A DNA stretch of 32,000 nt from Planctomycetales bacterium. Lineage in GTDB: Bacteria; 4484-113; JAFGCY01. Shown here piece by piece: positions 23,739-27,241 of this stretch. Location of the stretch: NCBI GenBank assembly GCA_022646745.1, contig CP060262.1, positions 840,001 to 872,000 on the forward strand, read 5' to 3'. The notes under the pieces are model-generated. The model was not told where the DNA came from and searched no databases. It saw nothing but the letters and a program-made list of their open reading frames with translations. A program made the translations under genes and the position numbers. Within the stretch, counting starts at the first letter, position 1, and every line of letters begins with the position of its first letter.

Positions 23739-23833
23739 CGAATTTTCAATATACATTCAGGGCAACTGAGCGCCACGCTCCCTCGTGGTGAGGGGCTTTC
23801 TTATTGAGACCCGGGGCGCAGGTTGGAGGAAGT

Positions 23834-24925
23834 ATGCGGTACGTGTACCTGCTCGCCATCCTGGCGACGCTGATCATTGCATCCTGCTCGGGCAACACCG
23901 ACAGTGCGGCAATCGACAACTCCACTCCCGAGCTGCTGGACAAGGGCGACCTTGCCAAGGGAACGAGCACCGTCTATTCAGACCCCGACGCTGACTGGAC
24001 ATGGGAACTGATCGCGGGCCAGCACTACCTTGCCGGCACCGTGACCGTCACCAATGACGAGGATACCCTGTACGTCACCTACAACATGGACCCGGCCTGG
24101 CCGCTGAGCGAGGCCCACGTATATGTGGGCACCGAGCAGCCCAAGAAGGGTGCACCGGGCCAGTTCCCCTACAAGCAGGAGTTCAACCCCGCCGTTTTCA
24201 CTTACACCTTCGAGATCCCGCTTGACGGCTTTGCCGGCAAGAGCCAGATCTTCCTTGCCACCCATGCCAAGACCGGCAGCGAGACCGCCTGGGGCGGCAA
24301 CTGGAACAATGGCAGCCCGAGCTGGGACTTCGGCTGGGGCAAGAAGTGGGGCGGCGGCTTCACCACCAATGTGATGCCGATGCCAGAGCTGCCGGATGAC
24401 AGCGTCACCTACCGCGGCTACCACTACGGCACCATGAGCTACTGGAACATGCGCTTCTTCGACCCCGTCACCCTGCCCCCCGGTTCCTTCTTCCAGGGCG
24501 GCATCGAGTACTGGGCCGGCTGGTGCGTTGACAAGAACCACACCATGTACCCGAACCACGACTATGAAGTCACCCTGTACAGCACCTACGACCAGAACCT
24601 GCCTGCCTTCGCGCAGAATGACAACTGGGACCTGGTGAACTACATGGTGAATGCCCGCCGCAACAACGGCACCGGCATCTGGGACCAGAACTGGAACAGC
24701 AACGCGATCAAGGACCAGTTCCAGGCTGCCTGCTGGAAGTTCAGCGACGGCCTTGACCCCGCCCCCGGTTCACTGGCTGAGGCCTTCGTGAATGACGCCA
24801 TTGCCAACGGCGAGGACTTCATCCCCGGCCCTGGCGAGTTCTACGCGATCCTGCTCTACCCGGACACCAGCACCAACAACAACCAGGTGCGTGCCCAGAT
24901 GAACATCATCGAAGTGGATCCGTAA
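23834..24925 (+). CDS. Lipoprotein, family member A: unassigned N-terminal domain + C-terminal Cys/QxAxW domain (thioester-domain-like, hypothesis)
   Basis: ATG 23834 follows GGAGGAAG. Lipobox signal MRYVYLLAILATLIIASC. Strong C-ending codon bias. Motifs WAGWCVDKNH (Cys codon 24524-24526) and DQFQAACWKFSDG (Gln codon 24722-24724). Confidence 0.9.
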   Translation: MRYVYLLAILATLIIASCSGNTDSAAIDNSTPELLDKGDLAKGTSTVYSDPDADWTWELIAGQHYLAGTVTVTNDEDTLYVTYNMDPAWPLSEAHVYVGTEQPKKGAPGQFPYKQEFNPAVFTYTFEIPLDGFAGKSQIFLATHAKTGSETAWGGNWNNGSPSWDFGWGKKWGGGFTTNVMPMPELPDDSVTYRGYHYGTMSYWNMRFFDPVTLPPGSFFQGGIEYWAGWCVDKNHTMYPNHDYEVTLYSTYDQNLPAFAQNDNWDLVNYMVNARRNNGTGIWDQNWNSNAIKDQFQAACWKFSDGLDPAPGSLAEAFVNDAIANGEDFIPGPGEFYAILLYPDTSTNNNQVRAQMNIIEVDP

Positions 24926-24956
24926 ACCAACTGAGCAATCAATCTCATCAGCACAC

Positions 24957-24988
24957 GGCCTCCCGTACCCACGGGAGGCCATTTTTTT
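24957..24988 (+). terminator. Rho-independent terminator
   Basis: GGCCTCCCG TACCCA CGGGAGGCC (9-bp stem) followed by A TTTTTTT. Confidence 0.85.
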
Positions 24989-25157
24989 GCGCGAATGAGT
25001 TGTCAGTTTCATTATTCAAGCTATTTCACCTCTTTGTTATCTGTATTTAACATTCATCCGATGCAATCCGCCGTAAAATCTGGATAGAGGCTGCACCAGC
25101 CCGCCTCCTGCAAGACAGGGGCCTGCTGAACCAGAGGTGCAACCATGGAGGATTGTC

Positions 25158-26258
25158 ATGCGGAAGATCCTGTCGGCCGCATGGATCGCGGCCCTTATTC
25201 TCATCTCCTGCTCCACGGGGCAGGGCACGATTGGCAACAACGAGAACGCACCATTCCTGGTTGTAAAACCGGAAACCGAGAAGGCAGCCAGCACCCAGCC
25301 CTATGTTGACGACGGCATGGACTGGACCTGGGACCTGATCGCCGGGCAGCACATGCTGGCCGGTACGGTCCATGTCTACAACGACGAGGACAGCATCTAC
25401 ATCGAGTACCACACCTTCGACGACTGGCCGATGTACAGCGCGCATGCCTACTGCGGCACCACGCAGCCCGTCAAGGGTGCCCCGGGCCAGTTCCCGGCCG
25501 GCATCGAGTTTGACGACCCGGTGCACGACTGGAGCTTCAGCTTCCCGCTTGCCGAGATCGGCTACAAGGGCCAGCTCTACCTGGCGGCGCATGCCGATGT
25601 CGGCGAGGGCGGTGGCAACGAGACCGCCTGGGGCGGCTACTGGAATGACGGGGAGCCCTACTGGGACTTCGACTGGAAGAAGTGGGGCGGCGGATTCACA
25701 AGCTGGATCATGCCGATGCCCGGCCTGCCCGAGGGCGCGGTCAGCTACCGCGGCTACCACTACGGCAGCTACAGCTACTGGGACGTGGCCTTCGAGGACA
25801 GCTTCCCGCTGCCGCCCGGTTCCATCGTTGTCAACGGCCAGACCCGCTGGGTCGGCTGGTGCTGCGACAAGGACCACACGATGTACGCGAACAGCCCATA
25901 CGAGGTCACGCTGTACTCCAGCTACGACCCGGACCTGCCGCCGATGGCGCAGGGCATCGCATGGGACATGCTCAACTACATGCTCAACCAGCGCCGCAAC
26001 GGCACTGGCATCTGGGACCGCGACTGGCATGCCAATGGCAACAAGGACCAGTTCCAGAATGCACTGTGGTACTTCACGGAAGGCATCGTGCCGGCGGCCG
26101 GCTCACTGGCGGAGTCATTCGTCAATGACGCACTTACCAACGGCGATGGCTTCATCCCGGGCCCGGGCCAGTTCTACGCCCTGGTCCTCTACCCGGACAC
26201 CAGCACGACCAACCAGTACGTACGGGCGCAGATGAACATCATCGAACTTGACCCGTAG
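25158..26258 (+). CDS. Lipoprotein, family member B (full-length paralogue of 23834..24925)
   Basis: ATG 25158 follows GGAGGA. Lipobox MRKILSAAWIAALILISC. Collinear with A, including WVGWCCDKDH (Cys codons 25860-25865) and DQFQNALWYFTEG (Gln codon 26055-26057). C-terminus is YVRAQMNIIELDP versus QVRAQMNIIEVDP in A. Confidence 0.9.
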   Translation: MRKILSAAWIAALILISCSTGQGTIGNNENAPFLVVKPETEKAASTQPYVDDGMDWTWDLIAGQHMLAGTVHVYNDEDSIYIEYHTFDDWPMYSAHAYCGTTQPVKGAPGQFPAGIEFDDPVHDWSFSFPLAEIGYKGQLYLAAHADVGEGGGNETAWGGYWNDGEPYWDFDWKKWGGGFTSWIMPMPGLPEGAVSYRGYHYGSYSYWDVAFEDSFPLPPGSIVVNGQTRWVGWCCDKDHTMYANSPYEVTLYSSYDPDLPPMAQGIAWDMLNYMLNQRRNGTGIWDRDWHANGNKDQFQNALWYFTEGIVPAAGSLAESFVNDALTNGDGFIPGPGQFYALVLYPDTSTTNQYVRAQMNIIELDP

Positions 26259-26279
26259 TCTGCAGACTGACTGACTTCC

Positions 26280-26311
26280 GGCCCGGCCCCTCCAATCCCG
26301 GGGGCCGGGCC
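26280..26311 (+). other. GC-rich hairpin without a U tract (possible partial terminator or processing site between B and the short paralogue)
   Basis: 11-bp stem GGCCCGGCCCC / GGGGCCGGGCC with a loop of about 10 nt, followed by ATAATCGCG. Confidence 0.4.
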
Positions 26312-26344
26312 ATAATCGCGTTTGCGATCAGTGGGAGGTATTGC

Positions 26345-26893
26345 ATGGGCATCGTCATTTCCATCCTGCTGGCGCTGTTGCTCACAGCCTGCGCCGGCGG
26401 TTCATCCGGTCCCGGCATCCCGTCACGCGGGGCAGCCGGCGACTTCGTCGGCATGAACCCCGGCTGCTGCTGGGAGCTCGTGGCCCGGGAGCGCACCCTG
26501 GCCGGCAGCATCAGTATGCGCAACAACGCCGGACAGATGTTTGTTGAGGTTGAGGCTGCCGAGGGATACCTGCTTGAATCCCTCAGCCTGTACGCCGGCT
26601 GTGAGATCCCAGACAGGGGCAATCCTGCCAGCTTCCCCTGGCAGCTCAAGTTCAATCCGCCGGTGCAATCCTGCACGATTGAGGTTCCGGTGGCGGAGCT
26701 GCCAGCGGAATGCTGCATGCAGATCGCCAGCTTTGCCGTGCTGCGCAGCGGACACGGCAGGCAGCGGGCCTGGGGGGCATACTGGCGGGATGGCAAGGCA
26801 AGTTATGACTTCAGCTGGAAATCCGGTGGCGGGGGCATCAGCACGAAGCTGTTCCCCGTTCCCAAGCCGCCGCCGGACTGCATTGAATACTGA
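26345..26893 (+). CDS. Lipoprotein, family member C: contains only the shared N-terminal domain
   Basis: GGGAGG lies 6 nt before the ATG. Lipobox LLALLLTAC. Aligns to the first ~190 aa of A and B (CCWELVARERTLAGSISM.., ..PASFPW.., ..RAWGAYWRDGKASYDFSWKSGGGG) and ends about 20 aa later. Confidence 0.8.
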   Translation: MGIVISILLALLLTACAGGSSGPGIPSRGAAGDFVGMNPGCCWELVARERTLAGSISMRNNAGQMFVEVEAAEGYLLESLSLYAGCEIPDRGNPASFPWQLKFNPPVQSCTIEVPVAELPAECCMQIASFAVLRSGHGRQRAWGAYWRDGKASYDFSWKSGGGGISTKLFPVPKPPPDCIEY

Positions 26894-26922
26894 CTGGAGC
26901 GGCACTCAGCCGCCTCTGCATG

Positions 26923-26951
26923 GCGCACGCCTCTCCAGGCGTGCGCTTTTT
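26923..26951 (+). terminator. Rho-independent terminator
   Basis: GCGCACGCC TCTCCA GGCGTGCGC (9-bp stem) followed by TTTTT. Confidence 0.8.
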
Positions 26952-27241
26952 CATTACTCGTCAACCACAGCTTGATATTGCCTTTACTTTGGCAAACCCA
27001 TAATTCGTTAATATACCAATGACTCACCTCTGTATCGGAGCGGTGGCCGGGAGCACAACCCGCAGGGCATCCCGGCCGCCGCATCCACTACCCCGGTTTT
27101 CCCTCCACTTCACTGCGATCTCACTGATGCGATACCTCTCTTCCCGGATGCCCGGTTATCCTTGCGGAAGCTGAATATTCCATTTGGCAACATTGCAAAG
27201 ACCAACTGAGCGGATGCAGCAATGCAGGCCACGGAGGGCCT

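Follow-up and report, generated by a model that had tools for sequence, protein, structure and literature searches.

Three lipoprotein genes with a common N-terminal domain

Three consecutive genes, here called A, B and C, lie on the forward strand of the window, the 32,000-nucleotide stretch of DNA that was analysed as a whole. Together with the terminators and N-terminal features recognised in them, they are as follows.

23834-24925, + strand: gene A, predicted lipoprotein of 363 aa; open reading frame, 100% identical to the 363-aa database protein P0001
23876-23887, + strand: lipobox IASC of A, residues 15-18 (Cys18); pattern match, Cys invariant in 13 close homologues
23981-24388, + strand: N-terminal beta-sandwich domain of A, about residues 50-185; all-beta in the AF2 model, common to B and C
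24957-24990, + strand: terminator-like hairpin and T-run after A, seen in the sequence
25158-26258, + strand: gene B, predicted lipoprotein of 366 aa, paralogous to A and built from the same domains; 57% identity to A, database protein P0010 near-identical
25200-25211, + strand: lipobox LISC of B, residues 15-18 (Cys18); pattern match
26345-26893, + strand: gene C, predicted lipoprotein of 182 aa with the N-terminal domain only and no thioester domain (TED); 31% identity to residues 38-193 of A
26381-26392, + strand: lipobox LTAC of C, residues 13-16 (Cys16); pattern match
26922-26957, + strand: terminator-like hairpin and T-run directly 3' of C, seen in the sequence

The open reading frames were listed at 23804-24925 for A (373 aa, TTG start), 25137-26258 for B (373 aa, GTG start) and 26345-26893 for C (182 aa). 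An earlier note on this DNA gave A and B 373 residues each, which is correct for these reading frames, but the proteins are likely shorter, with starts at the ATG codons at 23834 (A, 363 aa) and 25158 (B, 366 aa), since the resulting lengths equal those of the database proteins P0001 and P0010. Residue numbers below follow these starts unless stated otherwise.

As that note had proposed, the three genes form a lipoprotein family, with a lipobox in each and one N-terminal domain common to all, and A and B are collinear paralogues that align over their full length (57% identity, E 5e-149). The similarity between A and C is confined to the N-terminal domain (31% identity, E 2e-29), and C ends exactly where the C-terminal domain of A starts. 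Having the N-terminal domain only, C cannot perform the thioester chemistry considered below. An orthologue of C with equal length and 44% identity occurs in a related MAG. The neighbouring genes, encoding hslV, a cation efflux protein and a BamB-like PQQ protein, are housekeeping or envelope-related.

Lipoproteins were recognised by pattern, as proteins with a Sec-type signal peptide ending in a lipobox of the form [LVI][ASTVI][GAS]C. IASC, LISC and LTAC each follow a hydrophobic stretch at the N-terminus, and A, B and C are predicted lipoproteins on this basis; the lipobox Cys is kept in most of a 29-sequence family alignment. Gene A encodes, in order, a signal peptide with lipobox, a disordered linker (residues 19-44, of low confidence in a full-length AF2 model with an overall pLDDT of 86.7), the N-terminal beta-sandwich and a C-terminal TED-like domain. 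The beta-sandwich is unannotated, with no Pfam or NCBIfam match, and it also caps SpaA/SdrD_B stalk proteins at their N-terminus. No Pfam stalk domains were detected in A or B, and their C-termini (...IIEVDP and ...IIELDP) carry no LPXTG motif.

A C-terminal domain homologous to thioester domains

The C-terminal half of A and B was compared with TEDs by profile and by structure.

24389-24922, + strand: TED-like domain of A, residues 186-363; AF2 model, top nine Foldseek matches in the PDB are TEDs

We compared the family with Pfam TED model PF08341 (gathering score 22 bits) and with the NCBIfam TQXA/thioester models. Neither A, B nor the isolated C-domain of A had a Pfam or NCBIfam match, and none appeared even at E<=10 for A and B or at E<=0.1 for the domain. 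Profile matches were nevertheless present among both close and distant relatives: PF08341 matched 14/47 family domains at E<=0.1 (best E 5.4e-6), and no other family recurred. For example, P0004, which shares 68% identity with A and bears the NCBI name 'Cys-Gln thioester bond-forming surface protein', scores 23.1 bits, and P0071 (25.8 bits), P0105 (24.3), P0197 (25.6) and P0288 (25.6) also exceed the gathering score. The position of A and B below threshold reflects a limit of model sensitivity, because the functionally tested TED of pLS20 p34 itself scores only 23.6 bits. Moreover, in all six scored relatives (6/6) the family Cys falls at PF08341 model position ~4, which is also where p34 has its essential Cys; mutating that Cys abolishes function (PMC8092201). 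A family profile searched against PDB sequences gave no match at E<=10, and an hhalign comparison with one canonical TED aligned only the Cys motif, at a level that was not significant.

The AF2 model of residues 186-363 of A is confident (pLDDT 94.2, pTM 0.90). When searched against the PDB with Foldseek, as the earlier note had envisaged, it matched significantly only TED crystal structures, which occupied all top nine places at E 9e-5 to 1.2e-3. These included CpTIE (5a0g, 5a0d), FNE (5dcq) and PnTIE (5a0n), at probability 1.00, the structural agreement being moderate, with TM 0.54-0.58 and an rmsd of about 5 A. The next match was BaTIE (6fwv) at E 0.18, followed by unrelated folds at E about 1. 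The TED fold joins a beta-barrel subdomain to a helical subdomain of three core helices, and the model likewise has three helices (C-domain residues 80-91, 105-120 and 129-140) flanked by beta regions.

Taken together, the PF08341 matches of relatives, the model position of the Cys and the predicted structure indicate that the C-terminal domain of A and B (~178 residues) is homologous to the class I TEDs of Gram-positive adhesins, and the suggestion that these lipoproteins carry a TED homologue is upheld.

The candidate thioester residues

Solved TEDs carry three short motifs (Walden et al. 2015, PMC4450167). Two of them lie in beta strands: [YFL]C-Phi-zeta, which holds the thioester Cys, and the weak motif Phi-Q-zeta-Phi-Phi, which holds the thioester Gln. 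Between these two, the T motif occupies a central helix; its Gln makes a hydrogen bond to the backbone of the Cys and can be dispensed with for thioester formation in Cpa, and no residue of the motif is fully conserved (PMC4450167). All three motifs are present in A and B, in order and, in the model of A, in matching secondary-structure context.

24518-24532, + strand: C motif GWCVD of A, residues 229-233, with Cys231 the predicted thioester Cys; end of strand 224-231
24722-24742, + strand: T motif QAACWKF of A, residues 297-303 (Gln297, Trp301); in helix 290-305
24893-24910, + strand: Q motif AQMNII of A, residues 354-359, with Gln355 the predicted thioester Gln; adjoins terminal strand 357-361
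25854-25868, + strand: C motif GWCCD of B, residues 233-237 (Cys235); motif match
26055-26075, + strand: T motif QNALWYF of B, residues 300-306 (Gln300); motif match
26226-26243, + strand: Q motif AQMNII of B, residues 357-362, with Gln358 the predicted thioester Gln; motif match

The C motif reads W-C-V-D in A and W-C-C-D in B, with Trp in place of Y/F/L. The QxAxWxF segment can be assigned as the T motif because it is located in helix 290-305; it reads F-Q-A-A-C-W-K-F-S-D in A, and its Thr position is F, V or I across the family. The Q motif reads A-Q-M-N-I-I in both proteins, at the last strand, with a hydrophobic residue (Met) after the Gln where the weak published motif has a hydrophilic one.

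Conservation was counted in 233 near-full domain instances from bacterial and archaeal relatives. The Cys and the T-motif Trp are each present in 232/233 domains, the strand Gln in 227/233 and the helix Gln in 220/233. Four of the six exceptions at the strand Gln (6/233) are alignment gaps at that column, and the single domain that lacks the Cys (1/233) also lacks the strand Gln. Where the helix Gln is replaced, by E, R, L or A in 13/233 domains, both other residues (Cys and strand Gln) are retained every time (13/13).

These counts bear on which Gln would be bonded. The earlier note had paired Cys241 with Gln307 in A, and Cys242 or Cys243 with Gln307 in B, in 373-aa numbering. The motifs, these residues and the 65-66 residue spacing from Cys to QxAxW were all reproduced once offsets of 10 (A) and 7 (B) were applied, and conservation of the Cys (232/233), Trp (232/233) and helix Gln (220/233) indicates that the motifs do not reflect chance. 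A bond between Cys231 and Gln297 (Gln307 in 373-aa numbering) is nonetheless highly improbable. Although Gln297 is widely kept, and the helix Gln adjoins the Cys in solved TEDs, there it is hydrogen-bonded to the Cys backbone and not bonded covalently (PMC4450167). Furthermore, it is lost in 13/233 domains that retain both other residues, and a spacing of 66 is unlike that of solved TEDs, whereas 124 fits. Gln297 is therefore not supported as the bonded residue. The likely thioester partner of Cys231, judged from sequence, model and analogy with solved TEDs, is Gln355 (373-aa Gln365) in the terminal strand RAQMNIIE. The earlier note had recorded this strand as a conserved feature but passed over its Gln, such that the Gln-to-Ala control first proposed would have hit the wrong residue.

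The reassignment also lifts two reservations that had been attached to the TED comparison. The Cys-Gln spacing, previously considered short, becomes 124 for Cys231-Gln355 in A and 123 for Cys235-Gln358 in B, close to the 129 (CpTIE), 152 (SfbI) and 153 (PnTIE) of solved TEDs (PMC4450167). Phe in place of Thr in the T motif is no obstacle in a motif without any fully conserved residue (PMC4450167).

A TED fold devoid of a reactive thioester would serve as a non-covalent binding or structural module, with the Cys used for redox sensing, metal binding or an intermolecular disulfide. Consistent with this, neither A nor B reaches any curated TED threshold, their T motif is degenerate, and the TM-scores reach only 0.54-0.58. 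We regard it as unlikely, given that few positions in the 233 bacterial and archaeal domains are as well conserved as the Cys and the strand Gln, which are lost together in the single exception; a scaffold-only role is disfavoured because it would not preserve exactly this pair.

We therefore favour, with a probability of about 0.7, a reading of A and B as lipid-anchored TED proteins that form a Cys-Gln thioester and tether themselves covalently to a target. On folding, Cys231 (Cys235 in B) would attack the side-chain amide of Gln355 (Gln358 in B), ammonia would leave, and a buried Cys-Gln thioester would result, with Gln297 and Trp301 of the central helix (FQAACW) lining the site in a non-bonding role. 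A primary amine of the target, such as a Lys side chain, could then attack the thioester to give an isopeptide link to the Gln, by which the lipoprotein would become covalently tethered. From the membrane anchor onward, the predicted build of A and B is the lipobox Cys anchor, a disordered linker of ~30 residues, the beta-sandwich and the C-terminal TED, distal to the membrane. The analysis establishes the homology of the domain, the order and secondary-structure setting of the motifs, and their conservation. A bond that forms and reacts, exposure of the proteins at the surface and a part in adhesion would follow by analogy with characterised TEDs.

Location, distribution and relation to known thioester systems

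In a lineage presumed to be diderm, the lipoproteins may face the periplasm rather than the outside. The thioester would then act inside the envelope, either as a tether to an envelope amine (a peptidoglycan stem peptide or an envelope protein) or as a trap for an invading protein. The lipobox is the only sorting signal in A and B, the neighbouring genes named above are housekeeping or envelope-related, and a trap would parallel the alpha-2-macroglobulins of diderm bacteria, which are thioester-bearing periplasmic lipoproteins. Relatives carry export or surface-sorting signals, among them lipoboxes, PEP-CTERM (P0161) and a T9SS Por_Secre_tail (P0048), and giant proteins hold the domain in tandem. 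The PEP-CTERM and T9SS signals, and the place of the N-terminal domain at the tip of long SpaA/SdrD_B stalks, however, point to the cell exterior. We found no evidence for an envelope target, and consider this location of the chemistry distinctly unlikely compared with covalent tethering to a target outside the cell.

The TED-like family is large and mostly unannotated, and occurs in uncultured bacteria and archaea with lipobox, PEP-CTERM and T9SS anchors; a precomputed PF08341 match was present in 2/120 among the relatives listed. The number of full-length genes per genome in the lineage ranges from one to three, and multi-copy genomes also have a paralogue that lacks the TED. The TED is described in its literature as a Gram-positive feature (PMC4450167), and when full texts were searched for 'thioester domain' with Planctomycetes, PEP-CTERM, Bacteroidetes or diderm, none of the 15 top-ranked papers contained 'thioester domain'. 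The divergent TED copy predicted in A and B supports an extension of this domain to lipid-anchored proteins of environmental microbes. A broader proposition, which we hold tentatively and at low odds, is that TED-based covalent capture is a surface module of ancient origin and wide distribution in environmental bacteria and archaea, used on any anchor (lipobox, PEP-CTERM, T9SS, archaeal). Tandemly diversifying TED lipoproteins of this lineage could then bond cells to non-host targets (particles, polymers, other cells) or to their own envelope as a new covalent tether, with C a non-covalent competitor or partner. If the thioester forms, covalent adhesion would gain relevance for environmental microbiology and for the surfaces of diderms and archaea, and the domain, compact at 178 residues, would be a candidate for protein-ligation tools. 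The TED models of Pfam and NCBIfam could in that case be broadened to cover a clade that they mostly miss.

Among known systems, the alpha-2-macroglobulin/complement C3 type uses a Cys-Gln thioester that reacts with nucleophiles, as proposed for A and B. Its Cys and Gln are 3 residues apart, against 124 in A, and its fold (an alpha/alpha-toroid TED) is unrelated. Membership of A and B in this group was rejected, as they have no CxEQ motif and no A2M Pfam match, and no such protein appeared among the Foldseek matches.

Class II TEDs (BaTIE 6FWV, SaTIE, EfmTIE86 and pLS20 TIE p34) share the same thioester logic, and the Cys motif occupies PF08341 position ~4 both in p34 and in relatives of A and B. 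The Foldseek match to 6FWV is weak (E 0.18), and hhalign to p34 was not significant.

Class I TEDs (CpTIE 5A0G/5A0D, PnTIE 5A0N, SfbI, FNE 5DCQ; PF08341) have the fold of A by Foldseek (TM 0.54-0.58), and the A domain is nearly the size of that of CpTIE (178 versus 176 residues), with three core helices between beta regions in both, all three motifs in an unchanged order and secondary-structure setting, and a similar Cys-Gln spacing (124 versus 129). They differ in that A and B score under the TED thresholds of Pfam and NCBIfam and have Trp in the C motif at the Y/F/L position of the published motif, and their family has Phe, Val or Ile in the T motif where class I TEDs have Thr. A and B also lack the isopeptide or ester stalk domains of class I adhesins, one unannotated beta-sandwich preceding the TED, and come from an uncultured environmental lineage rather than Firmicutes or Actinobacteria. 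A TIE-type adhesin architecture (N-terminal TED, stalk repeats, C-terminal LPXTG) was rejected for A and B, in which the lipobox is N-terminal and the TED C-terminal. Polarity is thus reversed with respect to the C-terminal LPXTG anchor of class I proteins, but in both arrangements the TED occupies the end of the chain most distant from the anchor.

Lipoprotein genes behind hslV

The locus contains two paralogous lipoprotein genes, A and B, and a short third gene, C, each with an N-terminal beta-sandwich domain (N-domain).

Features of the locus (positions in the window)
21736-22737 (minus strand): gene for a protein of 333 aa that has a signal peptide (…PSIASAQ) but matches nothing in Pfam
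22959-23525: hslV (Pfam Proteasome), directly followed by the lipoprotein genes
23804-24925: ORF of A, 373 aa from TTG; likely start ATG 23834, giving 363 aa
23981-24388: N-domain of A
24957-24980: terminator-like hairpin and T-run 3' of A
25137-26258: ORF of B, 373 aa from GTG; likely start ATG 25158, giving 366 aa
25300-25718 (approximate): N-domain of B
26276-26310: GC-rich hairpin (ggcccggcccc…ggggccgggcc) between B and C, without a T-run
26345-26893: C, 182 aa
26450-26890 (approximate): N-domain of C
26922-26947: terminator-like hairpin and T-run 3' of C

All three ORFs named in the earlier note are present in the ORF listing. The likely ATG starts of A and B give the lengths of two database proteins, P0001, which is 100% identical to A, and P0010; residues of A are numbered throughout on the 363-aa form. 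Over their full length A and B share 57% identity (E 5e-149). The similarity of C to A (31% identity, E 2e-29) is confined to residues 38-193 of A, and the end of C coincides exactly with the start of A's second domain. The hydrophobic signal sequences close with lipoboxes (IASC in A, LISC in B and LTAC in C), whose Cys is conserved among homologues. B and C may share one transcript, whereas A is followed by a terminator of its own.

Using an alignment of closer homologues, we found related loci in three MAGs, namely UBP7 HKST-UBA01 (a 99% identical locus), UBP7 HKST-UBA03 and Planctomycetales bacterium Ww346; the lineage of the window is uncultured, and NCBI assigns the protein identical to A to 'Planctomycetales bacterium'. 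The adjacency of hslV and the TED lipoproteins recurs in three other contigs (L003, L004 and L009), and a Pfam scan of ORFs downstream of hslV identified no hslU. In L003 (GCA_024645305.1) the neighbourhood is that of the window, the lipoprotein family being preceded by a cation-efflux gene, the gene for a secreted protein of 333 aa, and hslV. The 333-aa gene of the window has a same-size counterpart in the equivalent place in L003, and a same-size ORF occurs in L009.

Copy number ranges from one full-length and no short copy in L009 (P0004, 68% identical to A, placed behind hslV), through two and one in this window, to three full-length paralogues and one short 188-aa member in L003. The family order in L003:8451-13332 is X, A-like, C-like, B-like, as compared with L009:4001-5104 and window 23834-26893. 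Such differences in number and order among related MAGs indicate recent tandem duplication or loss. The 188-aa protein of L003 is 44% identical to C and has the same end point; this same-length orthologue, together with C's own terminator, led us to reject a truncated pseudogene, and C is a real gene.

Relationship of the C-terminal domain to thioester domains

The earlier note had proposed, from the sequence of the window, that the C-terminal half of A and B resembles the thioester domain (TED, Pfam PF08341) of Gram-positive surface adhesins. The profile scan it called for gave a divided answer: A and B themselves did not match (with A, B and C as queries, neither Pfam nor NCBIfam returned a relevant model even at E<=10), but relatives reach PF08341, whose gathering score is 22. 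P0004 scores 23.1 bits and carries the NCBI name 'Cys-Gln thioester bond-forming surface protein', P0002 (79% identical to A) scores 20.6 bits, and four distant representatives lie above the threshold (P0071, 25.8; P0105, 24.3; P0197, 25.6; P0288, 25.6 bits). When 47 diverse C-domain sequences were scanned singly, 14 gave a TED match at E<=0.1 (5.4e-6 at best), and TED was the only family to recur among the 47.

For calibration, we scored the TED of p34, the conjugation adhesin of plasmid pLS20 (sequence from NC_015148), whose function is abolished by point mutation of the TED Cys (PMC8092201); it reaches 23.6 bits on PF08341. The invariant Cys of the family lies 1-3 residues past the hit start in all six scored members, corresponding to TED model position ~4, and the p34 Cys falls at the same position. 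Searches of PDB sequences returned nothing relevant for A (phmmer), no match at E<=10 for a 30-sequence C-domain profile, no TED for P0071 and P0288, and no match for the TED protein p34 (phmmer). A homology search seeded with p34 yielded two proteins only, and hhalign of the family against p34, a single-sequence comparison rather than one with a canonical TED profile, aligned only GWCVD with VYCID (probability 0.6%).

TEDs have a common fold even though their sequences are only about 12% identical (PMC4450167). Modelled at full length (pLDDT 86.7), A consists of a low-confidence linker (residues 19-44), an N-domain that is entirely beta and a C-domain of mixed structure. Modelled separately from a 47-sequence alignment, the C-domain (A 186-363; pLDDT 94.2, pTM 0.90) runs from beta strands through three helices to two final strands. 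Its best nine Foldseek matches in the PDB are all TED crystal structures (E 9e-5 to 1.2e-3), namely CpTIE-TED (5a0g/5a0d; best E 9e-5, TM 0.58), S. equi FNE (5dcq) and PnTIE-TED (5a0n), each at probability 1.00, followed by the class II BaTIE 6fwv (E 0.18) and then unrelated folds at E about 1. In these model comparisons the TED matches are cleanly separated from the rest, at moderate similarity (rmsd about 5 A). As the full-length model puts two domains into one search, it gave only weak TED matches (5a0d, E 0.025) amid Ig-like noise; use of the C-domain alone resolved this. The fold-level proposal thus stands, on TED matches in relatives, Foldseek, motifs and conservation, and it is very likely that the C-terminal domain of A and B is homologous to TEDs.

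Residues of the predicted thioester

TEDs have three conserved regions (Walden et al. 2015, PMC4450167); the thioester Cys sits within the motif [YFL]C-Phi-zeta on a beta strand, and the residues of the helical motif are unbonded and dispensable for thioester formation in Cpa (PMC4450167). The earlier note had paired Cys231 of A with Gln297 (Cys241 and Gln307 in 373-aa numbering), and its motifs and residue numbers were reproduced exactly after adding ORF offsets of 10 (A) and 7 (B). In the model, FQAACWKF of A lies within helix 290-305 and therefore corresponds to the TED helical motif, and the bonded Gln should instead be carried by RAQMNIIEV at the last modelled strand (357-361), as Gln355. 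Between the Cys and the strand Gln, A has a spacing of 124 and B one of 123, beside 129 (CpTIE Cys138-Gln267), 152 (SfbI) and 153 (PnTIE) in solved TEDs (PMC4450167), which the 65-66 spacing of the Gln297 pairing misfits.

Conservation was counted over 233 near-full domain instances. Cys231 and Trp301 are each kept in 232, strand Gln355 in 227 (four of the six exceptions being alignment gaps at that column) and helix Gln297 in 220. In all 13 domains where E, R, L or A replaces Gln297, Cys231 and Gln355 are both retained. In the sole domain that lacks the Cys, P0124 (Cys to Thr), Gln355 is also replaced, by Pro, and Gln297 is retained; this one case is suggestive of co-loss of the predicted bonding pair. 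A Cys231-Gln297 bond is accordingly highly improbable, and the Gln-to-Ala control designed around it falls with the assignment.

Two further cysteines were observed: B has a second Cys right behind the predicted thioester Cys (GWCCD; Cys235-Cys236, window 25857-25862), and A has Cys300 within the helix motif QAACW (24731-24733), common to only 5/233 family domains.

We put the probability that the TED-like domain of A and B forms a thioester at roughly 0.7, judging from this analysis as a whole. A TED scaffold that forms no thioester is unlikely, since exactly the bonding pair is conserved. A cysteine peptidase or transglutaminase was rejected for want of a conserved His partner (His236 occurs in only 94/233 domains), and Pfam and Foldseek searches gave no such match; an A2M-type thioester was rejected for lack of a CxEQ motif.

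In the favoured Cys231-Gln355 thioester, the protein, once exported and lipidated, would be tethered to a membrane through the lipid at its N-terminus and a flexible linker of ~30 residues, with the TED at the end far from the anchor. On folding, Cys231 would, by homology, attack the Gln355 amide, releasing ammonia (-17 Da) and leaving a buried thioester that a target amine could open to form an isopeptide link to Gln355. The lipobox alone leaves the facing of the protein undefined, as would suit a thioester acting inside the envelope, by covalent tethering or by trapping as in lipoprotein alpha-2-macroglobulins; we regard this as quite unlikely, and for an external adhesive role of A and B we see even odds.

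The wider family beside known TED proteins

Full-length A, used as the query against 1.84 billion cluster representatives, matched 2,679 proteins at E<=1e-3, many with the N-domain alone or the C-domain alone. TED-like domains occur in P0048 (three copies and a T9SS Por_Secre_tail), in a protein annotated as PEP-CTERM-sorted (P0161), and in proteins labelled as Diapherotrites, Crenarchaeota group 6, Methanofollis and Thermoplasmatota archaea. P0059 (3,310 aa) carries five copies with a period of 459 residues, and the giant protein P0063 (2639 aa) likewise has the domain in tandem. In P0031 (358 aa) the TED-like domain is apparently inserted inside the N-domain, the N-domain-closing strands of A ('ETAWAKG...GWGSFF') being placed after the TED, at the C-terminus. 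A precomputed PF08341 match exists in only 2/120 relatives listed, and current annotation overlooks most of the clade.

For the N-domain, neither Pfam nor NCBIfam gives a match, despite a very large set of relatives. In long proteins whose stalks are of SpaA, SdrD_B, DUF11 or fn3 domains (12 SpaA repeats in P0143), it forms the N-terminal tip, where the binding domain of fibrillar adhesins is usually found, which suggests that it is an undescribed binding domain of such adhesins. By association, the sorting signals and architectures suggest that both domains act outside the cell.

Domains of this kind are already known, one close homologue being so named by automated annotation. The TED literature consulted (including PMC4450167) presents TEDs as a Gram-positive feature, and the term 'thioester domain' is absent from the 15 papers ranked highest in our combined full-text search. 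In the TED architectures of that literature the domain lies near the N-terminus, beside which the internal tandem copies of P0059 and P0063 look unusual. Beyond the TED literature consulted, the present family adds the lipoprotein context of A and B, a reversed polarity with the anchor N-terminal and the TED C-terminal, a compact TED form without the Thr of the central-helix (T) motif, an un-annotated partner in the N-domain, and a TED-like clade spread over uncultured bacteria and archaea.
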